This document shows positions 1 through 63,689 of a stretch of DNA of 64,000 nucleotides, piece after piece (positions within the stretch are counted from its first letter, which is position 1; each line of letters starts with the position of its first letter). Where the stretch lies: contig NZHE01000026.1 in the NCBI GenBank assembly GCA_002691145.1, positions 114,546 to 178,545 on the forward strand, written 5' to 3'. A model generated the notes under the pieces. That model did not search any database and had not been told where the DNA came from. It saw nothing but the letters and a program-made list of their open reading frames with translations. The translations under genes were made by a program, and so were the position numbers. The stretch is from Rickettsiales bacterium. Its GTDB lineage: Bacteria; Pseudomonadota; Alphaproteobacteria; Methylaequorales; Methylaequoraceae.

Positions 1-629
1 ACTTTAATTCTTATAATTTTAGCAAGAAATATGATGTAGTTTTTTGTTCGCACGTAATCGAACATCAAAGAAATGTTGGATTTTTTTTAGACAAGATTTT
101 TGATATTTTAACCAATAATGGTGTTTTAATAATAACAGGTCCAAAACATCCAGCGGAAAGATTCGTAGAGGGACATTTACACAGTACAATACTTCCTTTG
201 TTTTTACAAAATCTAGTTTTTGCTGGTTTTGATTGTAAAAAGGGTAAAATTTTATGTTTGGGTGGTATTGAAAATTCGTTCATAGTAAAGAAGGCAAACA
301 ACTTTGACAAAAAAGAAAGACAAGAACTTTGTTATTCATGGACAAAAAAACATTTAGATAGATCAATTATAAATTTAAAACATAAAACATACATACCAAA
401 TCAAACAATTTTTCTAGAAAATTGTGAATTTTTAAAACTTGAAATAGTAAAGTCAACAGAAGATAATAATGCAATAAACAACTTTGGATTGAGTTTAAAC
501 TTTCCTAAAGGGTATAAATACAAAGACTTTCTAATAAATTTTCACATAAGAAGTCATTTTCAAATATTAGACTCTAAAAAGAAAATATTGTGTAAGGAAA
601 ATTCTGAATACGTTGAGATGAAGGTTTAA
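1..629 (+). CDS. Class I SAM-dependent methyltransferase-like protein, 5'-truncated by the window edge (paralog A of the following gene)
   Basis: Open frame from nt 3; translation '...YDVVFCSHVIEHQRNVGFFLDKIFDILTNNGVLIITGPKHPAERF...' resembles methyltransferase motif II/III regions. About 45% of the region aligns with the next ORF. Confidence 0.6.
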   Translation, partial: FNSYNFSKKYDVVFCSHVIEHQRNVGFFLDKIFDILTNNGVLIITGPKHPAERFVEGHLHSTILPLFLQNLVFAGFDCKKGKILCLGGIENSFIVKKANNFDKKERQELCYSWTKKHLDRSIINLKHKTYIPNQTIFLENCEFLKLEIVKSTEDNNAINNFGLSLNFPKGYKYKDFLINFHIRSHFQILDSKKKILCKENSEYVEMKV

Positions 630-6198: not shown

Positions 6199-6399
6199 TT
6201 AATCTCTTTCTTCGATCCATGCCATCTGAATCGATTCTAAGATTTTTTCATTCGATGCGTTAGGATCATCATCGAAATTTTCTAACTCAATTATCCATTT
6301 ATGAAGATCTGTAAATCTTAGATTTAAATTATCAATATTTGGATATTTTTCCTCCAACGCAATTGCAATCTCCAAACTGTCTTTCCAAGTTAAAATCAC
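6199..6399 (-). CDS. iscX: Fe-S assembly protein IscX (YfhJ)
   Basis: 66 aa acidic protein '[46 protein letters not shown]' at the end of the isc operon. Confidence 0.75.
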
Positions 6400-6731
6400 T
6401 TATCCACACTCATATTTCTTGTCCCACTTGGTAATTTAATTTTTATACCATCTAAATCATCATTAATTATTATTTGACATCCAAGTCTGGATGTATGTGT
6501 AAGTCCAAAAGCTAGATCTAACATATCCTCTTCTTCTTCAGTAGGTTCATTTAAACTATCAAAAATTTCTTTTTCTAGTATTACGTGACAAGTAGCACAT
6601 GCCAGAGATCCCTCGCAAGCGCCCTCCAAATCAATTCCATTTTTATGAGCAACTTCTAAAATTGACAATCCCTTTTCCGCTTCAACTGTTTTTTCAACTC
6701 CCTCTGAATCAATAAATATTACTTTAGGCAT
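6396..6731 (-). CDS. fdx: [2Fe-2S] ferredoxin of the ISC system (adrenodoxin-type)
   Basis: '[12 protein letters not shown]' and 'RLGCQI' cysteine motifs; position between hscA and iscX. Confidence 0.9.
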
Positions 6732-6746
6732 TATTTACTCCCTACT

Positions 6747-8555
6747 TTATATATTATCATACTTATTTCCTACTAGACCAGACTTCAAACTAGATTTTAT
6801 TCTTTTTTCAGAAAAACTCTGCGTAGATTCATCAAGCTTTTCTATTAGAAATTTAATTTGTTCCACACTTTTTTCTTCTAATGCATTTCTTAAATCAGTG
6901 ATGATGTTATTTATCTCTTTTACTTCAGATTTAGAGCACAAATTATTGAGTTCGTCATTTAAGGATTCTAGATGATTAAGCAATCTCTGGGCATCAATTT
7001 TTGCTTCATATAAATTTCTCTTTTTGATATCTTCTTTTGCATTAATAATACTTTCGTTGATCATATTCTTCATTTCATCAATATCCAAATCTGAATGGGG
7101 TTTTATCTCAAGCTCTTTTGTCTTTTCACTATCGCTTTCTGAGGCAGAAACATTAAGTATTCCATTGGCGTCAACAGTAAATTTTACCTTTATTCTTGGA
7201 ATTCCAGGTGGTTTTGGAGATATACCATCTAATATAAATTCTCCCAAACTTCTATTGTCACTTATAATTTCTCTTTCACCCTGAATAATATTAATCTTAA
7301 TAGAAGTTTGTCCATCTTCATAAGTAGTAAAATCTTGTTCCTTAGAAATTGGAATTGGAGAATTTCTTTGTATTATTTTTTCCATTAAACCACCTGCTGT
7401 TTCAATCCCTAGGGAAAGAGGAATGATGTCTAACAGCAAATTATCCGAACCATTGAGAAGTCCGTCTGCATGGAGAGCTGCCCCTTTAGAAACAGCAAAG
7501 TCTGGATCAATTTCAGAAAATATTTTTAACTCAAATTCCTTTTTTATCATTTCACTTATTAGACTTATTCTCGAAGAACCACCTACAAGAATAAAACCGT
7601 CTAAATCATTCAAAGATAATTTTGACTCTCTTAAAGCATCTTTGCAAATATTGATAGTTTTTTCTATTTGAGCTTTAATGACATCATTAAATTCTTTCTT
7701 GGTAATACTAATTGTTTTATTTAAGTTAAAAAAAAATACACTTTTCTTAAAAAAGTCTTCTTTGGATAAATACTCTTTAATCTTTTTAGCAAATTTAATA
7801 AAAGCCAGAAATTCTTTATCTACTATCTCTTCAAGTTTTAAGTTAAAGAATTTATTAAGTAAATATTTTGCCAGCGTATAATCAATATCATCACCTCCAA
7901 ACCTTGAGTCACCCCCAGTTCCAACAACTTGAAATATTCCCTCATTTAACTTTAAAATTGATACATCAAAAGTTCCACCTCCGAGATCATATACAAAATA
8001 ATTACCTCTTTTATTTTTTTCAAGACCATATGCGTACGCTGCTGATGTTGGTTCATTGATTAATCTTAAAACATTGAATCCTGCGATTTTAGCTGATTTT
8101 CTAATGCCAGATCTGGCAATATCGTCAAAATATGCCGGAACTGTAATTACGCAATTTTCAATGTCCATTTTAGTAAAGCTTGTAGAAATCTTTTTTAAAT
8201 ATTTAAAGATCTTAGTAGCAAGTTCAACTGGTGAATATGATTTATTTATTTTACTTAAAAATTCTATTTTATTAGGATCATTGTTGAACATGCGTTTAAT
8301 GGAAAATATACATTTATCAATTTCTTGATTTATTTTCTCAAGTCCTTGATTCCCAATTAAAATCTCACTTTCTGTAAAATAAAGTACACTTGGTATTAGT
8401 CCTTTACCAAACTCATCTTTCACAATTTTTATTTTTTTATCAATTCTTACCGAGCACACACAATTAGAGGTGCCAAAGTCAATTCCTAATGCATAACTAT
8501 CTTTCGCATGAGGTTCTGGTGATTTTCCTGGTTCACTAATTTGTATTAAGCTCAT
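6747..8555 (-). CDS. hscA: Fe-S cluster assembly Hsp70 chaperone HscA
   Basis: Hsp70 motifs 'GIDFGTSNC', 'VYDLGGGTFDVSIL', 'LVGGSSRI'; 602 aa; follows hscB. Confidence 0.9.
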   Translation of the reverse strand: MSLIQISEPGKSPEPHAKDSYALGIDFGTSNCVCSVRIDKKIKIVKDEFGKGLIPSVLYFTESEILIGNQGLEKINQEIDKCIFSIKRMFNNDPNKIEFLSKINKSYSPVELATKIFKYLKKISTSFTKMDIENCVITVPAYFDDIARSGIRKSAKIAGFNVLRLINEPTSAAYAYGLEKNKRGNYFVYDLGGGTFDVSILKLNEGIFQVVGTGGDSRFGGDDIDYTLAKYLLNKFFNLKLEEIVDKEFLAFIKFAKKIKEYLSKEDFFKKSVFFFNLNKTISITKKEFNDVIKAQIEKTINICKDALRESKLSLNDLDGFILVGGSSRISLISEMIKKEFELKIFSEIDPDFAVSKGAALHADGLLNGSDNLLLDIIPLSLGIETAGGLMEKIIQRNSPIPISKEQDFTTYEDGQTSIKINIIQGEREIISDNRSLGEFILDGISPKPPGIPRIKVKFTVDANGILNVSASESDSEKTKELEIKPHSDLDIDEMKNMINESIINAKEDIKKRNLYEAKIDAQRLLNHLESLNDELNNLCSKSEVKEINNIITDLRNALEEKSVEQIKFLIEKLDESTQSFSEKRIKSSLKSGLVGNKYDNI

Positions 8556-9157
8556 AAAGTGTTTCTGTTCAAATTAAAGTTGTCAATATCTTTAATCAGC
8601 TTTTTTAAATACGATATTCTAACGTTTGTTTTAAATGCCTCATCTAATTTTTTAGAATTAAAATTTTTAATTAATGTATTCATGTCATTCTTTACTAAAT
8701 TTTCAACTTTTTTTTGAAGAATCTTTTTTTCTTTCTCATTCTGAATCTCTTCTAATTCCTCTTGAAGAAACATAATTTCATTTAAAGTTTGAACATCATT
8801 AAAGGTGCTACTCTCAAATTTAATATCAAAACCTAATATTTTTAATAATTCATTTGCTCTAGATACAGAATCATTAATTTTTTTATAGGCATCATTGATA
8901 TTAGCAGTATGCATTTGGGCAAATAATTTTTCATTCTCTGGAGAATTTATAAAATTATCTGGATGAATTTCTCTTTGCAATGAAAAATATTTTTTTTCTA
9001 TTTCTTCATGATTAATAATAAAATTAGGAAATAAACTAAAAGTCTCAAAGATATTAAGATTTTTAGGTTTTTGAACTTTATTACATCTTAAGCAAAAAAA
9101 AGTTGTTGTACTTGAATCTTCATTACAATTCCAACATTTCCAATTTTCCTGAGGCAT
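8552..9157 (-). CDS. hscB: Fe-S co-chaperone HscB with N-terminal Cys4 zinc finger
   Basis: 'CWNC...CLRC' zinc finger as in eukaryotic/alphaproteobacterial HSC20, J-domain 'HPDNF', C-terminal helical bundle; overlaps the hscA start. Confidence 0.85.
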   Translation of the reverse strand: MPQENWKCWNCNEDSSTTTFFCLRCNKVQKPKNLNIFETFSLFPNFIINHEEIEKKYFSLQREIHPDNFINSPENEKLFAQMHTANINDAYKKINDSVSRANELLKILGFDIKFESSTFNDVQTLNEIMFLQEELEEIQNEKEKKILQKKVENLVKNDMNTLIKNFNSKKLDEAFKTNVRISYLKKLIKDIDNFNLNRNTL

Positions 9158-9165
9158 TTATATTT

Positions 9166-9489
9166 TTAGACATGAAATGATTCGCCGCAGCCACATCTTC
9201 CTTTTTCATTGGGGTTGCTAAATTGAAAGCCGGATTGAAGATCATCTTCTACATAATCCATTTTTGTACCTATTAAAAATAAGGATGCTTTTGGATCAAT
9301 AAATACATTTACGTCATCAACAACAATTTTTTCATCTGAATTATCTTTTGTATCAACGTATTCTAATGTATAAGAAAGACCTGAGCAACCTTTGGTTTTA
9401 ACACCAATTCTGATACCCTCAGAATCTTTTTTCCTATCTTCAAGTAATTTTTTAACGGCTTGGATAGCTTTAGTTGTAAGCGTGATCAT
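9166..9489 (-). CDS. iscA: Fe-S cluster insertion protein IscA (HesB family)
   Basis: 'GCSGLSY' and C-terminal 'CGCGESF' motifs; 107 aa. Confidence 0.9.
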   Translation of the reverse strand: MITLTTKAIQAVKKLLEDRKKDSEGIRIGVKTKGCSGLSYTLEYVDTKDNSDEKIVVDDVNVFIDPKASLFLIGTKMDYVEDDLQSGFQFSNPNEKGRCGCGESFHV

Positions 9490-9494
9490 AAAAA

Positions 9495-9878
9495 TTATTT
9501 GTCATTTTTTTTCTTGTAGTCGTTAACTGCAGCTTTAATTGCATCTTCTGCGAGTACAGAGCAATGAATCTTAACTGGAGGCAAAGCCAAATGCTGGGCA
9601 ATTTCTGTATTTTTGATTTTGTTGGCTTCGTCAATATTTTTTCCTTTTACCCACTCTGTAATTAATGAACTCGATGCGATTGCCGAACCACATCCAAATG
9701 TTTTAAATTTAGCATCTTCAATAACGCCATCGTCGTTCACCTTAATTTGGAGTTTCATAACATCTCCGCATGCTGGAGCTCCAACTAAACCAGTTCCAAC
9801 CTTTTCATTGTCCTTGTCCATTGAACCAACATTTCTAGGTTTTTCGTAATGATCTAATAATTCTTTACTGTACGCCAT
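9495..9878 (-). CDS. iscU: Fe-S cluster scaffold IscU
   Basis: 'GAPACGDVMKL', 'FKTFGCGSAIASSS', 'LPPVKIHCS' – canonical IscU. Confidence 0.95.
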   Translation of the reverse strand: MAYSKELLDHYEKPRNVGSMDKDNEKVGTGLVGAPACGDVMKLQIKVNDDGVIEDAKFKTFGCGSAIASSSLITEWVKGKNIDEANKIKNTEIAQHLALPPVKIHCSVLAEDAIKAAVNDYKKKNDK

Positions 9879-54338: not shown

Positions 54339-55301
54339 ATGAAATATTTTAAATATATATTAACTTTAGTAGTCTTTTTTTCTTTTGATCTAAGCTTTGC
54401 ACAGAACAAAATTAAAATTGGTACCCTTCAATATGGGAGTGTCAATTGGGAGCTTGAACTCATTAAACAATTATCACTAGACAAAAAAAATAACATTAAT
54501 GTAGAAATTGTTCAGCTTGCAAGTAAGAATGCGGCAGCTGTAGCACTTCAAGGTAATGCTGTTGATTTGATTGTTACTGATTGGTTTTGGGTCTCAAGAC
54601 AAAGAGCTTTAAACAGAATGTTTTCCTTTGTACCTCATTCTATGGCCGCGGGTGGGCTTATCGTAGATGAGAACTCAGGTATTCAGAGTATTGACGATCT
54701 TAAAGGAAAAAAAATTGGCATTGCTGGCGGCCAAGTAGATAAAAGCTGGTTGATATTTAGAGCTTTCTATCAACAAAAATTTGGTAATGATCTAATAAAT
54801 GAAACAAAACAAATTTTTGGAGCTCCACCATTGCTTAACAGAAAGATAGAGCAAGGTAGTTTTGACGCCATTTTAACATATTGGCCTTATCAGGCTAGAT
54901 TACTCTCAAAAGGATTTGTAAAAGTGATAAATGTTAATGATATTATCAAAAATTTGGGAATAAACAGTAATATGCCAATAATCGGATGGGTATTTAGGGA
55001 TGAATGGGCGCAGGAAAATCCAAATTTATTAGAAAACTTTATAAATACATCAAATGAAGCCAAAGAGTTGATGTTGAAAAAAGATGAAGTTTGGGAAAAT
55101 ATCAAGCCCATTATGAAATCAGAAAATGATAAAGTTTTCAATAATCTTCGTGATATTTATCGCGAAGGCATACCAAGAAATTTTGGTTCATCCAATGTAG
55201 ACGGCGCATCAATTCTTTATAGTACTCTTTCTGAAATTGGTGGCAAAGCTCTTGTTGGAAACTCAAAGGAAATTGCCCCAGGAACATTCTGGTTAGAATA
55301 A
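54339..55301 (+). CDS. ABC transporter periplasmic substrate-binding protein, NMT1/SsuA/TauA family (sulfonate/nitrate/taurine or pyrimidine-precursor type)
   Basis: Signal peptide, type-2 PBP fold with 'GKKIGIAGGQVD' segment characteristic of the family. Confidence 0.7.
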   Translation: MKYFKYILTLVVFFSFDLSFAQNKIKIGTLQYGSVNWELELIKQLSLDKKNNINVEIVQLASKNAAAVALQGNAVDLIVTDWFWVSRQRALNRMFSFVPHSMAAGGLIVDENSGIQSIDDLKGKKIGIAGGQVDKSWLIFRAFYQQKFGNDLINETKQIFGAPPLLNRKIEQGSFDAILTYWPYQARLLSKGFVKVINVNDIIKNLGINSNMPIIGWVFRDEWAQENPNLLENFINTSNEAKELMLKKDEVWENIKPIMKSENDKVFNNLRDIYREGIPRNFGSSNVDGASILYSTLSEIGGKALVGNSKEIAPGTFWLE

Positions 55302-55302
55302 C

Positions 55303-56052
55303 ATGAAAATTTTTTCCAATAGTACTAGCCTAAGGCTTTTATCCTTATTGGCTTTCCTCTCTTTATGGTATCTAGTAAGTTTCTTAGTTGATAATTCACT
55401 GTTACCTAGTCCCTCAAATGTTTTGATAAAAATTAACGATGAAATTAATGCTAATGAATTATTTAAGCATACAGGCATTACTCTTAGAAGAGTATTCTTA
55501 TCATTTAGTATTGCAATGATAATAGGTGCAGCCATTGGAATATTTATGGGAAGAAGAAAGAAGATTAATGACTTTTTCGATGATTGGTTAGTTTTAGGAT
55601 TGAATGTTCCAGCTTTAGTTATCATTATTTTATGTTATGTTTGGTTTGGGTTGAATGAATCTGCAGCAATTTTAGCAGTTTCCTTAAATAAAATACCAAT
55701 GGTTGCTGTTATTATGCGGGAAGGCTCTAGATCCATTGATGAACAATATATCGATGTAGCAAAATTTTATAATATTAGTAAAAAAAAACTTTTTTATAAA
55801 ATAATTATACCACAACTATATCCATATCTAATGTCTGCAGCTCGGTCTGGATTGTCCCTAATTTGGAAAATAGTTCTAGTTGTTGAACTGTTGGGAAGAA
55901 GTGATGGAGTAGGTTTTAAATTATACGGTCTTTTTCAATTTTTTGATATAAGTGGAATCCTAGCCTATACTTTTACATTTGTTGCAGTAATAATATTTGT
56001 TGAATTTATTTTTGTAAGACCCCTTGAAAGAAAGTTAACATTATGGCGTTAA
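55303..56052 (+). CDS. ABC transporter permease (BPD_transp_1; SsuC/TauC-like)
   Basis: Six TM segments and the 'EAA-like' loop region; follows the SBP. Confidence 0.75.
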   Translation: MKIFSNSTSLRLLSLLAFLSLWYLVSFLVDNSLLPSPSNVLIKINDEINANELFKHTGITLRRVFLSFSIAMIIGAAIGIFMGRRKKINDFFDDWLVLGLNVPALVIIILCYVWFGLNESAAILAVSLNKIPMVAVIMREGSRSIDEQYIDVAKFYNISKKKLFYKIIIPQLYPYLMSAARSGLSLIWKIVLVVELLGRSDGVGFKLYGLFQFFDISGILAYTFTFVAVIIFVEFIFVRPLERKLTLWR

Positions 56053-56055
56053 AAA

Positions 56056-56808
56056 ATGAGTATTTCTATTAAGATCAAGGAAAAATTTTTTCTAAGCAAG
56101 GATAAACAAGAGAAGATAGTTGCTCTCAGAAATATTAACACAAAAATTAAATCAAAAGAATTTGTATGCATTGTTGGACCATCGGGATGTGGTAAAACAA
56201 CTCTAATGAACTTAATTGGAGGATTGGTGGCGTCTAATGACTCTGAAATTTTAATTAATGAACAAGAACTTAGTTCAAAAAATTCTTTAGGTTATGTATT
56301 TCAAACATCAAGATTAATGCCATGGCTAAATCTTTTCGAAAACATAAAATTGGTTTGTAATGACTCAATAGATTCAGAAAAAAAAATAAAGGAAATACTA
56401 GAAAATTTTGAACTTTCAGAATTTTTAAATGCATTTCCAAGTACCATATCCGGTGGTATGAGACGAAAAGTTGCATTAGCCCGAGCTTTTGTGAATAGCC
56501 CAGAAGTACTATTAATGGACGAACCATTTGTTTCTTTGGATCAACCAACAACTGAAAACTTATATAAGGTACTCATTGACTATTGGGAAAAAATGCCTAC
56601 AACTGTAATCTTTATAACACACGTTTTAAAAGAGGCTCTTTTACTAGGAGATAGAATTTTGTTTTTTACCAAAAGACCTGGAACCATAGTATTAGACTAC
56701 AAAGTAAAATCAAAGCGCTCCCCATTAAAAATAGACAATGATGAAGTTGCAAAAGAATATGATGCTCTGAACAAAAAGTATCCAAGTCTGTTAAAAGGAA
56801 TTCTATGA
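56056..56808 (+). CDS. ABC transporter ATP-binding protein
   Basis: Walker A 'GPSGCGKTT', signature '[14 protein letters not shown]', Walker B 'LLMDEPF'. Confidence 0.9.
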
Positions 56809-57434
56809 ATTTTGAATTTCTGTTAACTTATTTTGATAAGGGTGGTTTTATTTTTGCTTTATTATTGATGATTTCTTTGGTTTCAATAACCATAATAATA
56901 TACAAAATCTTCCAATTTTTTTTTATTGATAATGCTAACGCAGAAAAATTGGAGATTCTAATACAAGAATCTGCGTCTATTCGTGAGTTCAAAAATAAGA
57001 TTTTACTTTTAAATAATAAGGAAAATATTTTTTTTTCTACAATTAAATACGCGTCAGCAATATTTGAAAAAAAATCAATCAATGATGAAGATAAAGTAAA
57101 TGCAATTAAGATACACGTACAAAAAAAAGTAAATAAAGTTGAGTCTTTTCTCTCCGTACTTGAAATAATAGCACAAGTAAGTCCTCTTCTTGGTCTTCTA
57201 GGCACAATTCTAGGAATGATAGCATCGTTTACCGAACTAGAAGTTGGAGGAAGTAATATAGATCCGTCTATATTGGCCGGTGGAATTTGGACGGCTCTGC
57301 TAACAACTGCGATTGGTCTTATTGTAGCAATCCCTGCATTAGTTGCATTTCATTTTTTTGAAAAGAGAGTTTTATCCATAAAAAATAAATTAAACAATCT
57401 TTTACTTCAGCTCAACGGAATTAAAGATAATTAG
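56805..57434 (+). CDS. exbB: MotA/TolQ/ExbB-family proton channel
   Basis: Three TM helices with '[15 protein letters not shown]' signature. Confidence 0.8.
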
Positions 57435-57451
57435 AGTATTAGCTAATCGAA

Positions 57452-57862
57452 ATGTTTTTGGAAGAAAAAGAAGAGAAAAATAGAACTATTAACATAATCC
57501 CACTTATAGATATTATTTTTCTTATGCTAATTTTTTTTATGTTGGCAACAAATTTTTATAAAGACAAGGAGATTGATTTCATAGTTCCAAAAAATAAAGT
57601 TGAATTAACAAATACATCTGAAGAATTTTTGGAGATAAGATTAAATGAAGATAAATATCTTTGCAACAATGAAGAAATGAATTTTGGGGAGTTATCCGAA
57701 AAATTTTTGAAAATTTGGAGAGAAAAAGATTATGAAGGAGTAGTTATATTTAACAATGAAAAATCTGAAGTAAGGAACCTTATTAAGTTACTCGATATTT
57801 TAAACAAAAATAAAGTTTCGAAATTTTTCTTTGGAGAGAAAAATGTTTATAAAAAAAGATAA
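57452..57862 (+). CDS. exbD: ExbD/TolR-family protein (copy 1)
   Basis: 'INIIPLIDIIFLMLIFFM' N-terminal TM typical of ExbD/TolR. Confidence 0.8.
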   Translation: MFLEEKEEKNRTINIIPLIDIIFLMLIFFMLATNFYKDKEIDFIVPKNKVELTNTSEEFLEIRLNEDKYLCNNEEMNFGELSEKFLKIWREKDYEGVVIFNNEKSEVRNLIKLLDILNKNKVSKFFFGEKNVYKKR

Positions 57863-58247
57863 GTTTAAAAAAAAGGAAATTAATCTGATTCCTATGATTA
57901 ATATTATATTTCTCTTACTAATTTTTTTTATGCTAACAGGTACAATAAAATATCAGGAATATCCTCAGATTATGAAGCCATATTCCGAGCAAGCATATAA
58001 AGAATCTAACTATAGTGAAAATAATTTTAATCTCGGAATTTTAGCTAATGGTGAATTACTTTTTAAACAAAAGAAAATAAATTTGAATGACCTAGGCAAA
58101 AAAGTAACAGAATTATCAAAGACCAAAAAAATTTTATTAAGCGTTCATAAAAATACAAAAATCGAAAAATTCAAAGAAGTATTAGGAGTTTTCAAACAAA
58201 ATAATTTTGAAAAAGTTTATGTTTTAACAACTAATGAAGATATATGA
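57831..58247 (+). CDS. exbD: ExbD/TolR-family protein (copy 2)
   Basis: 'INLIPMINIIFLLLIFFMLTG'; paralog of the preceding gene. Confidence 0.8.
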   Translation: MERKMFIKKDKFKKKEINLIPMINIIFLLLIFFMLTGTIKYQEYPQIMKPYSEQAYKESNYSENNFNLGILANGELLFKQKKINLNDLGKKVTELSKTKKILLSVHKNTKIEKFKEVLGVFKQNNFEKVYVLTTNEDI

Positions 58248-59004
58248 CATGTCGAATTTAAAAATAGCATTTTTGGCATTAAACTTTTCTATTTTATGTC
58301 ACATTTTTTTTATCTTATTACTTCTTGAAAAAAAAAGTAGTGAAAAAAAGTACGCTGTAGTTGATCTTTCAAATTTCAGTAAATTTCAAACAATCAATAT
58401 CAAGAAAAAAGAAAAAATTGATAATACGAAAAGCTCAGAAAAAAAAAAAAATAGTGATAACAAAAAAACATTACAAAAAAATTTAGAAACCTCAAAGCAA
58501 GAACCAAAAAAAGTAATAAAAAAAAATGATTTAACTTATCCAAAAGTTGAAGTTTTAAAAAAGCCTGAAAAAAAAAATCCATTTTTTGAAAAGGAAAAAG
58601 ATGTAGAAGAAAATGAAAAAAAAAAAAAAGAGAAGACTTTTGATAGTAGCGATGAATATCAGAAACAAAGTTCAGCTGCCAAAGAATTATTAATTATTAA
58701 AGATAAAGCCCTTTATAACTATTTAAAACAAATATCTACTGAAATTAATATTTTAGCAAATAAGGCATATCCAAAGCGTTCAATTTTAAGAAGAGAACAA
58801 GGAAAAATTTTGACGAGAATTACCATTGGTTATTCAGGAGAGGTAATAAATATACAAATTTTAACAAAAAGACCGAAAAACTTAGCAAAAAGTGCTGAAA
58901 AGATATTAAAACAAAGAAATAAACTTCCAGCGCCACCTGAAATTTTAATCAAAAATTCTAAAAGTATAGTTGTTGAGATACCTATAAATTATATTCTCAA
59001 GTAA
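58234..59004 (+). CDS. tonB: TonB-family energy transducer
   Basis: N-terminal TM anchor, Lys/Glu/Pro-rich spacer, C-terminal TonB_C-like 'YPKRSILRREQGKILTRITIGYSGEVINIQILTKRP...LPAPP'. Confidence 0.7.
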   Translation: MKIYDMSNLKIAFLALNFSILCHIFFILLLLEKKSSEKKYAVVDLSNFSKFQTINIKKKEKIDNTKSSEKKKNSDNKKTLQKNLETSKQEPKKVIKKNDLTYPKVEVLKKPEKKNPFFEKEKDVEENEKKKKEKTFDSSDEYQKQSSAAKELLIIKDKALYNYLKQISTEINILANKAYPKRSILRREQGKILTRITIGYSGEVINIQILTKRPKNLAKSAEKILKQRNKLPAPPEILIKNSKSIVVEIPINYILK

Positions 59005-59024
59005 TAATTATGTTGTATAAAAAC

Positions 59025-59049
59025 AACATTTTATCAAAAATGTTACAAT
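59025..59049 (+). promoter_or_regulatory. Candidate extended -10 promoter (TGTTACAAT) overlapped by a perfect 8-bp inverted repeat AACATTTT-atca-AAAATGTT, upstream of the porin gene
   Basis: Read directly: 59025-59032 AACATTTT, 59037-59044 AAAATGTT (reverse complements), TGn-TACAAT at 59041-59049, about 80 nt upstream of the start codon. Confidence 0.45.
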
Positions 59050-59128
59050 ATACAGAATATTATGTTTAAGAAAACTTTATTATAATGTAAAAAGAGAATA
59101 CTATTAACAATAATTAAGGGAGGGAAAA

Positions 59129-60442
59129 TTGAATAAATTTTCTAAAAAAATCGCTGTAGCCGCAATACCTGCTGTTATGGCCCTTTCTGCATCTGCTGTC
59201 GACTCAAAACAACTTCTAATGAGTGAAGGTGGCTGGGAAATATCGTTTGATGGTGCAGCAAACGCATTTTATAACGTGACTAATTCTGATGCTACCAACG
59301 ATGCAACATTCGCTGGTGCTAATACTGTAACAACTTTTGAAACTGCAGGTGATTTCATTGCAAGTGATGGAGCTCAAACAAGTTCTATTTCTGTTGGTTT
59401 ATTACCTAACGTTTTTGGTTTTACCATAAAAGCCCCAACTTCTAATGGACTAGATGTTTCAGGTAGATTAGGTATTTATACACACATGAACGCAGATGGT
59501 TCTTCTGCTGCTAGTAACGCACCTAATATGCGTGAAACTAGTTTTACAGTTGCTGGTTCATTTGGTTCTATACTTGCCGGAAGACATTTAGGTCTATGGC
59601 AAAGAAAGGCTATCGTAAACGATGTAACACTCTTTGGCGTTGGTGGTACGGCTGGTAACATTACAGGAACCACATTAGGTAGAATTGGTTCTGGTTATGT
59701 TTACGCTGACTGGTACCCTCAAATTCAATGGACACTTCCAACAATGGGTGCTGTAACTGCTACTGTAAGTTTACTTCAGGCCACACCATTGATTTCCACA
59801 ACTGCTAACTATGGTGCGACTGAAACAGCAACTCCAAGAGTTGAAGTTTTAATTGACGCTAATCACTCTTTCGGTGGAGCTGACATTAACTTCTGGCTTG
59901 ACGGTCAATTTCAAGAGTTAGAGAGAACAACAACCCAAACTACTACTGTTAGAGCTGGAGCAACAGCTTATAATGGTGCTAGCACTGATGAGGCTGATGC
60001 AATAACTGCATACGGTGTTGGAGCTGGTGCAAAGATTACTGTAGGTAGTTTTGATTTAGTAGCTTCCTTTTTCAAAAACCGTGGAGTTGGTATTCAGTTC
60101 CAAGGTAATACAGGTGGATCAACTTACTCAGGTGCACTTGACGCAGTTGGAAAAGCTAGACACTTCTACGGTGGATACATCCAAGCACATGCTGATCTCG
60201 GTGGCGGAACTAATGCCGCTTTCTCGTACGGTCAAAACAAAGCTGTAGCTACTGGTAGTGATATCGAATCACTCACTGTTGCCGAAAGAAATACAGTTGA
60301 ACATTGGAATGGAATGCTTTGGCATAACTTAACTGATGATTTCAGAGTCATCGCTGAAGGTTCTTATTCTGAACAAAGTCTACACATGGGCGGTAGCCAA
60401 GATTCAACAAATGTTTCTCTTGGTGCTTTCTTCTTCTGGTAA
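59129..60442 (+). CDS. Major outer-membrane porin-like beta-barrel protein (Ala/Gly/Thr-rich, C-terminal aromatic)
   Basis: Signal peptide 'MNKFSKKIAVAAIPAVMALSASA', alternating amphipathic beta-strand pattern, ends '...SLGAFFFW'. Strong SD AAGGGAGGG before the TTG start; higher GC and biased codon use suggest high expression. Confidence 0.7.
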   Translation: MNKFSKKIAVAAIPAVMALSASAVDSKQLLMSEGGWEISFDGAANAFYNVTNSDATNDATFAGANTVTTFETAGDFIASDGAQTSSISVGLLPNVFGFTIKAPTSNGLDVSGRLGIYTHMNADGSSAASNAPNMRETSFTVAGSFGSILAGRHLGLWQRKAIVNDVTLFGVGGTAGNITGTTLGRIGSGYVYADWYPQIQWTLPTMGAVTATVSLLQATPLISTTANYGATETATPRVEVLIDANHSFGGADINFWLDGQFQELERTTTQTTTVRAGATAYNGASTDEADAITAYGVGAGAKITVGSFDLVASFFKNRGVGIQFQGNTGGSTYSGALDAVGKARHFYGGYIQAHADLGGGTNAAFSYGQNKAVATGSDIESLTVAERNTVEHWNGMLWHNLTDDFRVIAEGSYSEQSLHMGGSQDSTNVSLGAFFFW

Positions 60443-60465
60443 AATTTATCAGATTGTTATAAACT

Positions 60466-60496
60466 GAAGGGAGATTTTTTAATCTCCCTTTTTTTA
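60466..60496 (+). terminator. Rho-independent terminator after the porin gene
   Basis: GAAGGGAGAT-ttttttaa-ATCTCCCTT followed by TTTTTT. Confidence 0.8.
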
Positions 60497-60505
60497 TGCT
60501 TAAAT

Positions 60506-61429
60506 ATGAAAAAAATCACCTCATTAATTCTGTTTTTCTTTTTAAATTCGTGTGCGGTTTCTGAATTTTTATTTAATGAAGATATATTATGGCTTAGGAC
60601 GATTGAAAATGTTAAATTAGTTGATCAAGACTCAAAAATAGTTCCTAATGTTCATCCAATAAAGATTTCACCCGATCGAGTACAAGGTGCTTTTAGACTT
60701 ATTCTAGTTAGATATAATCAAAAAATGGTACAATTATTTTCAGAGGACAAGTTATATGTTGTTTCACAAGCTATAAGTGAAGGACTTAGAAAAGCAAAGC
60801 CTGATCAAGATATTGTTTTTACTCTCGAGGATTGGTACAAAGGAAAATATACGAAGGATAACAAAGTAACATCAGGTAGAGTATTTTATAATAAAGATGG
60901 CTTGAATATTATTTTTGGCTCAATCCTAAGAAAGGGTTTGATGAATGAGAGTGATCCAATGGTTGCTGCAGTGAATGAGGATTTGAGGATTAACCCATAT
61001 GTTCCAGGTTCTAGAAAAATAAGTATCAAAAATAAATTCTTTCTAGCTGCTCCGCCTAAGTCCGGAGTTTTTAGACCCAGAAATGCTAAAGGAAGGGTAG
61101 ATTGGTTGGTTTTTACAAATAAAGCCTTAAGAGCAAGAGCAATGCTAGGGAATGAGGAAAAAAGAATTTCTCAAAGAAGTAAAATCGAAGTTCAAAGTCT
61201 CAGCAGTGAGGTTAAACAACTTAGAAAGGAAATTGAAAATCTGAGAAGAAACCCAAATCAAGTAAATAGAAGTTCAAACCGAGAATATCAGAGTAATAAA
61301 TATAGAACACAAAATTATAATACAGGTAGTAAAAACAATTTAGAAATCAAAGCATTAAAGAATCTAAGAAGTAAAGGTATTATAAGTGAAAAAGAGTACA
61401 GGGAAAGATTGAGACAGTTAGGCTATTAA
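60506..61429 (+). CDS. Lipoprotein with C-terminal SHOCT domain
   Basis: Lipobox 'FFLNSC', coiled-coil 'EVQSLSSEVKQLRKEIENLRR', C-terminal 'LKNLRSKGIISEKEYRERLRQL' = SHOCT motif. Confidence 0.6.
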   Translation: MKKITSLILFFFLNSCAVSEFLFNEDILWLRTIENVKLVDQDSKIVPNVHPIKISPDRVQGAFRLILVRYNQKMVQLFSEDKLYVVSQAISEGLRKAKPDQDIVFTLEDWYKGKYTKDNKVTSGRVFYNKDGLNIIFGSILRKGLMNESDPMVAAVNEDLRINPYVPGSRKISIKNKFFLAAPPKSGVFRPRNAKGRVDWLVFTNKALRARAMLGNEEKRISQRSKIEVQSLSSEVKQLRKEIENLRRNPNQVNRSSNREYQSNKYRTQNYNTGSKNNLEIKALKNLRSKGIISEKEYRERLRQLGY

Positions 61430-62163
61430 AACTCCACCTCAATATTCCAAATTAGCGCGTTTTTTGAGGCATCTTTTGTAATCCCTTTTAAGTAACCCAA
61501 TTCTAGTTCAAGCTCATATTTATTAATCAAAAATTCTTTACCTAATAAAAAACCAATTTGATGTTCTTGTTTTTGTAATGAGTGAAAATTTGATAATTCG
61601 CCAAATTCCGAGAAATTAATTAAACCTATTTTAAACAAGTTTAATATATTTTTACTAAATTCCAAATAATTGGATAACCCAAATTCAGTAGAACCCGAAG
61701 CAGAAGTACCTATTTGTTTTTCAAAAATAAAGTTTGTTATTAAACTAAACTCTTTAAATAAAAATTGATTAAGAAATTTATATTCTATTTCATCACCTTT
61801 TCTTTCACTCGAATTAAAATTATATGAGAAATAGAGCGCGCTTGCTAGGTACTGTAAGTCTATGATTTGTAGCTGATTTTGTAACTCTGTTTTTTCCCAG
61901 TCTAATGGGGTATCTGTTTTATCAGAAATGTGAAATTCTACTTCACTTTGCCAATAAGAATTCCAAGAATATTCAGTTTCAAAAACCTGATGGTAACTTT
62001 TATCAATCGAATTTGACGATTCTAAATTAAAATGACCTCTCCATTCAAATGATTGACGTCCCTCTTCTACCCTTGGACTATAGATTTTATGATGAGCATT
62101 ACCATTGTTAAATACTAACATAAAGAAAAAAAATAACAAACTACGAATCAAGTAGATCTTCAT
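61426..62163 (-). CDS. Secreted/outer-membrane hypothetical protein (possible small beta-barrel)
   Basis: Signal peptide 'MKIYLIRSLLFFFFMLVFNNGNA', alternating pattern, C-terminal '...IWNIEVEF'. Confidence 0.45.
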   Translation of the reverse strand: MKIYLIRSLLFFFFMLVFNNGNAHHKIYSPRVEEGRQSFEWRGHFNLESSNSIDKSYHQVFETEYSWNSYWQSEVEFHISDKTDTPLDWEKTELQNQLQIIDLQYLASALYFSYNFNSSERKGDEIEYKFLNQFLFKEFSLITNFIFEKQIGTSASGSTEFGLSNYLEFSKNILNLFKIGLINFSEFGELSNFHSLQKQEHQIGFLLGKEFLINKYELELELGYLKGITKDASKNALIWNIEVEF

Positions 62164-62993: not shown

Positions 62994-63689
62994 ATGGATG
63001 GAATGCTACAAACATCTGATTTTGTTGGTGTGACATTTTGGATCATCTCTGTTTCAATGGTTGCCTCAACTTTCTTTTTTTTCTCAGAGGCCAACAATGT
63101 TGGTAAACACTGGGGTACATCAGTCAGAGTAGCTGGTTTGGTTACTTTAATTGCTGCTGTTCACTATTATTACATGCGAGACGTATGGGTAGGCACTGGT
63201 GAAACACCAACGGTACTAAGATATATTGACTGGTTATTAACCGTACCACTTCAAATGATCGAATTCTACTTAATATTAGCTGCTGTAGGTGCTGCAACAG
63301 CTGGAATGTTCTGGCGCCTTTTAATTGGAACACTTGTTATGTTGATAGCTGGCTTCATGGGCGAAGCTGGTTTTATTAATGCAACAGTTGGTTTTGTTGT
63401 AGGCATGGCTGGATGGATTTACATTCTTTATGAAGTGTTCGCAGGTGAAGCTGCTCAAGCTAATACTTCAAGTAATTCTGAAGCTCAAAAATCAGCATTT
63501 AATGCTATGAAATGGATTGTATCAATAGGTTGGTCTATTTACCCTATTGGATATTTCTTAGGATATCTCGCAGGAGGCACTGATGATAGTTCATTAAATG
63601 CAATTTATAATTTAGCAGACTTTATCAACAAGATTTTGTTTGGTCTAGTAATCTGGGCAGCTGCAAAGTCTGAAACTGCTAAAGCTTAA
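62994..63689 (+). CDS. Proteorhodopsin, blue-tuned (Gln at the spectral-tuning position)
   Basis: 'RYIDWLLTVPLQMIEFYLIL' (Asp acceptor, Gln tuning residue, Glu donor), Schiff-base lysine in 'DFINKILFGL', 7 TM helices; 231 aa. Confidence 0.95.
   Translation: MDGMLQTSDFVGVTFWIISVSMVASTFFFFSEANNVGKHWGTSVRVAGLVTLIAAVHYYYMRDVWVGTGETPTVLRYIDWLLTVPLQMIEFYLILAAVGAATAGMFWRLLIGTLVMLIAGFMGEAGFINATVGFVVGMAGWIYILYEVFAGEAAQANTSSNSEAQKSAFNAMKWIVSIGWSIYPIGYFLGYLAGGTDDSSLNAIYNLADFINKILFGLVIWAAAKSETAKA

Follow-up and report, generated by a model that had tools for sequence, protein, structure and literature searches.

In Escherichia coli, EnvZ/OmpR control of the porin genes ompF and ompC operates through OmpR sites that lie ~40-100 bp upstream of the promoters and are built of tandem GTTACA-like 10-mers. 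FNR recognises TTGAT-N4-ATCAA, and CRP sites are centred at -61.5, -71.5 and -82.5. At the RNA level, the hp1 stem-loop of the ompA 5' untranslated region (UTR) stabilises the mRNA and is defined by its structure at the 5' end of the transcript. In SAR11 and streamlined marine bacteria like it, very few transcription factors (TFs) remain, and only very few regulatory DNA sites have been described for them. Here we describe an 18-bp palindrome upstream of an outer-membrane porin gene on contig NZHE01000026.1 (positions 114,546 to 178,545) of assembly GCA_002691145.1, a 'Rickettsiales bacterium' metagenome-assembled genome (MAG); the whole stretch of 64,000 nt is called the window, and positions below are those of the window. 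The element marks the porin and other outer-membrane protein (OMP) genes in many aquatic, mostly marine, streamlined bacteria; with moderate confidence we predict that it is the DNA site of a dimeric TF, placed ~80 bp upstream of the promoter and co-regulating OMP genes. It is apparently undescribed in the searchable literature: a search for the motif strings returned nothing relevant, and the study of P. ubique RNA motifs by Meyer et al. 2009 (PMC2704228) mentions neither porins nor the palindrome.

The palindrome, TGTTGTATAAAAACAACA (TGTTGTA-N4-TACAACA, 59011-59028), is the only exact TGTTG-N8-CAACA in the window. Orthologous loci were collected by a protein-query scan with one genome per species, which gave 33 loci with porin identities of 30-59%; with the syntenic ortholog L001 (78%) and the window itself, the set comprises 35 loci. 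GTTG-N7/8-CAAC is present in the window and in 34 of the 34 other loci (porin identity 30-78%), 115-127 nt before the start codon, and the distance from the palindrome to the tonB stop codon on its other side varies by ~2-30 nt through unalignable insertions. When the sequences are stacked on the palindrome, information content reaches 1.8 bits or more at most arm positions (lowest value ~1.0) and is 0-0.4 bits in the flanks. Across 37 sequences no change is seen at nine positions (G, T, T, G, A ... C, A, A, C), and only A or T occurs at the four central ones; the family consensus is TGTTGYA-N4-TRCAACA, with the half-site TGTTGYA. The element thus combines two properties looked for in a TF-binding site: dyad symmetry with conservation far above that of the flanks across orthologs, and a fixed spacing both to the gene start (35 loci) and to promoter-like blocks. 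A second GTTGYGGNAAAACAAC match, ~2.9 kb upstream in several loci, was set aside as coding sequence, presumably that of the Walker A motif (GxGKT) of an ABC ATPase gene.

The same palindrome recurs at other OMP genes. A metagenome scan for exact TGTTGTA-W4-TACAACA, in which stretches were selected on the 18-mer alone, returned at least 120 stretches, and 80 loci among the matches listed were considered. Genes were called OMP-like if the product had a signal peptide and, where the open reading frame (ORF) was complete, a C-terminal F or W. By this definition 28 of the 80 listed loci have an OMP-like gene start 92-190 nt from the palindrome, mostly at 92-135 nt (100 nt in the window), and 4 more are SAR11-type loci cut at the contig end. 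Only 4 of the 80 adjoin the porin family of the window (L058 and the distant L051, L056 and L107, ~29% identity). Another arrangement, seen in 19-23 low-GC loci of the 80, is leuS <- DUF3576 lipoprotein <- palindrome -> a gene whose 320-385-aa product carries a signal peptide and ends in F; sampled members of this family match Pfam Porin_4 (E = 7e-15 to 7e-22). We infer that this family belongs to SAR11 from its low GC, its abundance, its synteny and the OmpU name it shares with SAR11_0359, the ompU porin of 'Ca. P. ubique' (PMC3870248). In four of the listed loci the palindrome stands upstream of a ~220-aa OMP_b-brl protein (a small barrel of the 8-strand type), and in others it precedes further porin-like ORFs, such as that of L041, which matches Porin_4. 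Across metagenomes, then, the element recurs upstream of functionally related, non-homologous genes, namely Porin_4 proteins of several clades and OMP_b-brl proteins. A motif-independent sample was drawn by a protein search with one SAR11-type porin, which has thousands of relatives, some of them labelled OmpU: all seven of the protein-selected SAR11-type loci, from 4 lineages, carry TGTTGTA-N4-TRCAACA 109-112 nt upstream of the ATG, between divergent genes. In one porin sub-family (L100, L106, L108, L115) a second small palindrome, TTGTATTACAA-like, stands at +33..+43 from the start of the main one, ~15 nt downstream of it.

The position of the palindrome relative to the promoter was approached by counting offsets from its first T. 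The orthologs conserve TTyAAT at +54..59 and TGTAnnAT at +74..81; the SAR11-type porins and small barrels have TATAAn or GATAAn at +74..82; and the distant porins L056 and L107 have a clear CTTGCG/CTTGCT at exactly +54, followed 18 nt on by CATAAT/GATAAT. At these offsets the window has a -35-like TTTAAG (59065-59070) and TG + TAAAAA (59086-59093), the latter at the conserved -10 offset (+74..+82), which together would form the promoter. The transcription start site (TSS) is accordingly predicted near 59100, giving a leader of ~29 nt that would start with the TATTAAC box (59102-59108; kept across orthologs as ATATTAAC/TATTAAC), just upstream of the Shine-Dalgarno (SD) sequence AAGGGAGGG (59116-59124), which it would also carry. 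Because the predicted start lies near 59100, the palindrome centre at 59019.5 falls near -80, which suggests the upstream position of a class-I-type activator and not that of a repressor occluding the -10.

A sequence-invariant dyad with an A/T centre, kept across paralogous families, is on sequence evidence the signature of a double-stranded DNA site read by a dimeric protein. In the mechanism that we favour, a dimeric TF would bind the two TGTTGYA half-sites on either side of the A/T-only centre, with a weak -35-like hexamer ~45 bp and a -10-like hexamer ~67 bp downstream of the site; the centre would lie near -80 from the predicted start of a short, ~30-nt leader with a very strong SD, and the bound protein would act by upstream class-I-type activation. 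Protein binding, promoter position and the direction of the effect (activation rather than repression) are all predicted here. The palindrome would then be the mark of an OMP regulon in streamlined low-GC marine and freshwater alphaproteobacteria, occurring at the same distance from the genes of at least three barrel families: the tonB-linked porin, the SAR11-type OmpU-like Porin_4 proteins and the ~220-aa OMP_b-brl proteins.

Several observations weigh against this reading. The placement of the promoter is its weakest step: the -80 position is based on AT-rich hexamers that are only moderately to weakly conserved, TAAAAA, the hexamer of the window species at the conserved -10 offset, is a poor one, and two better-looking -10 sequences lie elsewhere, TGTTACAAT at 59041-59049 and a perfect TATAAT at 59081-59086, which is species-specific, off the conserved offset and without a -35 partner. 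No further palindrome was found in 10 kb past the window end, and with a single site in ~74 kb of this genome the regulon is indicated across metagenomes and not within this organism. No TF was detected by a Pfam scan of 40 window ORFs, in the 7-20 kb loci of this lineage or in the flanks of the orthologous loci. The invariance of the stems is neutral with respect to an RNA hairpin recognised by its sequence. Finally, 48 of the 80 listed exact 18-mer matches are not beside OMP genes, and the sequence alone is therefore not diagnostic. Among these other copies are some (L059/L067/L098; L072/L077/L102; L082/L103 and others) in intergenic DNA of contigs of higher GC (0.37-0.45), part of them in small recurrent contexts; they may be other elements or chance matches.

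Still more tentative, with the balance tipped slightly against it, is the wider proposal that one TF coordinates the major barrel genes of SAR11 and neighbouring streamlined alphaproteobacterial lineages via TGTTGYA-N4-TRCAACA, ~80 bp upstream of their promoters, and that this factor might be a receiver-less OmpR-type protein encoded near the SAR11 porin. In SAR11-type loci (L161:5214-5877; L162, L163, L166; L088, L108) a 187-aa protein with Trans_reg_C as its only domain is encoded 1.7 kb from the porin; it is an OmpR-type winged-helix protein with no receiver-domain match, and its gene is followed by a 39-aa ArfA-like ORF. By synteny we regard this protein as a lead to the regulator. It is absent from the window, and a homolog search gave close SAR11 copies among the matches listed, which is uninformative on the lineage of the window. 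The 7 kb past the window end yielded no regulator, unless a PAS protein and an rpoH-like sigma factor are counted.

Comparison with described systems places the palindrome apart from each of them. The likeness to EnvZ/OmpR lies in upstream sites before weak -35 porin promoters, in one factor serving several porins, and in the OmpR-type winged-helix gene near the SAR11-type porin; the palindrome is, however, a single inverted repeat around an A/T centre, which lacks the tandem GTTACA-like direct repeats of OmpR-type control, and no regulator gene of this type was found near the window porin. Its core TTGTA-N4-TACAA recalls CRP/FNR sites, having the spacing of the FNR core (5-bp arms, 4 central bases), an A/T-rich centre and a predicted class I position near -80, but positions 4-5 of the arm have other bases, conservation reaches 2 bp further out on each side (TG...CA), and no CRP/FNR gene was identified. 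NtrX is likewise a protein with palindromic sites, and belongs to the small set of response regulators that SAR11 has retained. Its recognition sites in alphaproteobacteria are CAA-N2-5-TTG (PMC9223101), with the opposite arm order and a shorter spacing; the palindrome has the order TTG...CAA, longer spacing and longer arms, and NtrX was rejected as the binder. In 'Ca. P. ubique', nitrogen limitation alters the abundance of the OmpU protein (PMC3870248).

The porins that carry this mark are among the most abundant envelope proteins of these bacteria, and nutrients enter through them. A site of 18 bp that stays unchanged between lineages with porins only 30-50% identical, and that also stands at non-homologous OMP genes, offers a testable handle: it could serve as bait for the regulator, as a search pattern for the regulon in complete genomes, and as a marker of the adjustment of outer-membrane permeability. 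If one coordinating factor does act on it, this would be a conserved, ancient OMP regulon in organisms known for almost no transcriptional regulation.

Among the alternatives, the palindrome might act as RNA, either as a 5'-terminal mRNA-stabilising stem-loop like ompA hp1, as a processing or protein-binding hairpin in a ~120-nt leader, or as a weak terminator or attenuator after tonB. The constant distance to the start codon is what a functional leader would show, and the tie to highly expressed OMP genes recalls ompA, where likewise a hairpin-capable sequence precedes an abundant OMP gene, here ~115-130 nt upstream of the start. Furthermore, the stem folds better than shuffled sequence (z = -2.5) and is followed in the window by UUUUAU. 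The fold amounts, however, to just -5.7 kcal/mol with 2 G-C pairs, and the U-run is found in the window species and not in most others. In a covariation test of 7 pairs in 36 distinct sequences, the number of paired cells and the covariation score equalled the shuffle means, with 317 of 500 shuffles scoring as high; a single double change was seen in 252 cells, equal to the shuffle expectation, and four of the 7 pairs never vary. The closing pair (pair 7) is broken in 11 of the 36 sequences, and position 6/13 is T/A in 26, T/G in 6, C/A in 3 and C/G in 1, the pattern expected from two half-sites TGTTGYA that vary independently. The C-A mismatches arose in three separate lineages. These figures do not support a structured cis-RNA hairpin maintained by compensatory changes, since compensatory change is not above chance; what is invariant across paralogous families and distant clades is the sequence of the stem itself, beyond its pairing. 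Thus, unlike the ompA stem-loop, the element conserves sequence and not pairing, has a weak stem without covariation, and lacks a conserved upstream promoter: anchored stacks revealed no conserved -10 holding a constant distance on its upstream side, where the spacer to tonB differs in length between loci. An intrinsic terminator of the tonB operon is also not supported, given the weak stem, the unconserved U-run and the divergent genes of the SAR11-type loci, between which the site cannot be a terminator; the terminator scan did not call the palindrome. An Rfam scan of 58000-61000 found no family match, only two sub-threshold chance matches. We regard a role as RNA as unlikely.

A low probability is also assigned to a DNA site that is not a porin activator, such as a distal repressor operator, an insulator that shields a very strong promoter from neighbouring transcription, or a place where an architectural or nucleoid protein binds. 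The evidence for sequence-specific DNA recognition would be identical, the site always stands at the upstream border of the promoter region, beside the end or start of the neighbouring gene, and it is followed by an A/T-tract resembling an UP element. Against such roles, invariant arms that contain G/C, in a perfect dyad, point to a specific dimeric regulator more than to a nucleoid protein, a lone repressor would not usually act from one site at -80, and the weak -35-like hexamers are like those of activator-dependent promoters; these points are not decisive.

The first-pass annotation had proposed a different operator for the same gene, in which the perfect repeat AACATTTT-ATCA-AAAATGTT (59025-59044) binds a repressor that occludes the extended -10 TGTTACAAT. 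Both elements exist as written and overlap as such an operator would, and TGnTAnnnT is a good extended -10 match. The repeat is nevertheless expected by chance: with up to 2 mismatches, AACATTTT-N4-AAAATGTT is expected 0.77 times per shuffled window (at least one match in 49 of 100 shuffles), and the proposed search for further occurrences gave one match in the window. Comparable perfect inverted repeats (8-bp arms, spacer 0-8) number 72 in the window vs 43.7 +/- 8 in shuffles, and eleven of them have spacer 4. Nor is the geometry conserved, the check that the annotation had itself suggested and in which absence was to count against it. In L001, whose porin is 78% identical, the repeat and TGnTACAAT are both lost; three same-species contigs (L003, L005, L006) have TACAGT in place of TACAAT, a strain polymorphism at 59041-59049; and among the 33 further orthologous promoters the repeat occurs in none, and an extended -10 at that offset in one, where it is non-homologous. 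Most of the left arm is made up of a T-run and the last bases of the conserved palindrome, the two elements having only AACA in common. We therefore read the promoter/operator geometry as a species-specific coincidence, with its palindrome probably a chance repeat, and consider the occluding operator very improbable. The idea of a regulatory palindrome at the porin promoter survives in altered form, since a conserved palindrome does exist, as the separate element at 59011-59028, far upstream of the promoter-like blocks and not over a -10.

Conservation of the 18-bp element as a by-product without function, because the loci diverge slowly or share a mobile or repeated fragment, is extremely improbable: AT-rich palindromes are common in these genomes and the exact 18-mer also occurs in unrelated contigs, but the arms have stayed invariant amid intergenic flanks saturated with changes, the element precedes non-homologous OMP genes in different contexts at the same spacing, and one copy per ~74 kb is not a dispersed repeat.

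The gene downstream of the palindrome (59129-60442, forward strand) encodes a 437-aa product with an N-terminal signal peptide, MNKFSKKIAVAAIPAVMALSASA..., and a C-terminal FFFW, both kept in 25 homologs. By its predicted fold it is an outer-membrane porin of the 16-strand general type. The AlphaFold2 (AF2) model, built with 25 homologs, is of moderate confidence (pLDDT 65, pTM 0.64) and consists mostly of beta strands, and a Foldseek search with it returned 16-strand general porins at E = 6e-15 to 1e-10 (6eus DcaP, 2fgq Omp32, 3a2s PorB, BpsOmp38, OmpU, OmpF), with a target-normalised TM of up to 0.73 against solved porins. There are hundreds of full-length homologs; 7 of the 25 sampled reach Pfam Porin_4 (best E = 3.7e-6). 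The window protein itself has no Pfam match at E <= 0.01, and neither a single-sequence nor a profile search gave a sequence match to it among solved structures. It thus resembles the general porins (Porin_4/OmpF-PorB-Omp32) in signal peptide, C-terminal aromatic residue and predicted 16-strand barrel, and differs in falling below Porin_4 when taken alone and in its length of 437 aa with long extra loops. The database entry for an identical protein, from a 'Rickettsiales bacterium' MAG, calls it hypothetical. Structure model, Foldseek matches and homologs all agree with the earlier description of the gene as porin-like.

That description had also placed a strong SD before a TTG start, and this holds: AAGGGAGGG lies 4 nt before the TTG at 59129 and is present, as AAGGAAGGAAAT or AAGGGAGGG, in all orthologs. 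AAGGGAGGGAAAATTG is common to the sub-clade of L001 and L024, and is near-identical in L037 and L038; the other orthologs have ATG at the position of the TTG, behind AAGGAAGGAAAT. Since the protein N-terminus is conserved from that codon in the homolog alignment, AAGGGAGGGAAAATTG is conserved and ATG occupies the same place elsewhere, the sequence comparison indicates that TTG is the genuine start codon. The strong terminator noted after the gene was likewise found by the terminator scan and by folding, as an intrinsic terminator at 60466-60497 (forward strand) with an 11-bp stem, a 4-nt loop and a T-run; the hairpin at 60466-60491 with its T-run folds at -15.3 kcal/mol (z = -5.6 vs shuffles). 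The composition had been called atypical. GC is indeed raised over the ORF (0.41-0.43 vs 0.21-0.31 in the upstream exbB-tonB genes), but GC3 is 0.23, like that of neighbouring genes (0.17-0.27), and a foreign origin was rejected on this ground. The rise is an amino-acid effect: Ala, Gly and Thr make up 36% of the residues, which brings GC1 and GC2 to 0.51 each. A smaller rise (GC1 0.46, GC2 0.42), likewise with a low GC3 of 0.27, is seen in the proteorhodopsin gene of the window.

Region 59005-60496 comprises the intergenic spacer after tonB, the 437-aa ORF and the hairpin with its T-run. In the 5' to 3' direction the gene order is NMT1-type ABC transporter, exbB, exbD, exbD, tonB, porin and a SHOCT-domain lipoprotein, beyond which lie a 245-aa OMP-like ORF on the opposite strand, DUF3126 and DUF3429 genes and the proteorhodopsin gene. 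The transporter genes (NMT1/THI5-like substrate-binding protein, permease and ABC ATPase) are directly followed by exbB-exbD-exbD-tonB (together 54339-59004), and the cluster ends at the porin; no TonB-dependent receptor is visible in the window. The tonB gene, the final one of the cluster (58234-59004, forward strand; Pfam TonB_C, E = 2e-10), keeps its synteny in L001-L005. It contains five poly-A runs of 9-14 nt (58328-58629), and in the same-species contig L005 (1984-1996) A13 in place of A14 at 58616-58629 splits tonB by a frameshift into two ORFs, which could be due to slippage or to an assembly error. The 245-aa ORF (61426-62163, reverse strand) has a signal peptide, a C-terminal F and the look of an outer-membrane barrel, without a Pfam match, and its upstream region is without the conserved palindrome. 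On the reverse strand at 6396-9878 the window also carries an Fe-S assembly cluster of NifU_N/IscU, Fe-S_biosyn (IscA-like), HscB and a 2Fe-2S ferredoxin. The proteorhodopsin gene (62994-63689) is followed, just past the window (L168:10757-20206), by crtE-crtI-crtB-crtY-blh, the retinal pathway, and by the genes for the PAS protein (138 aa) and the rpoH-like sigma factor.

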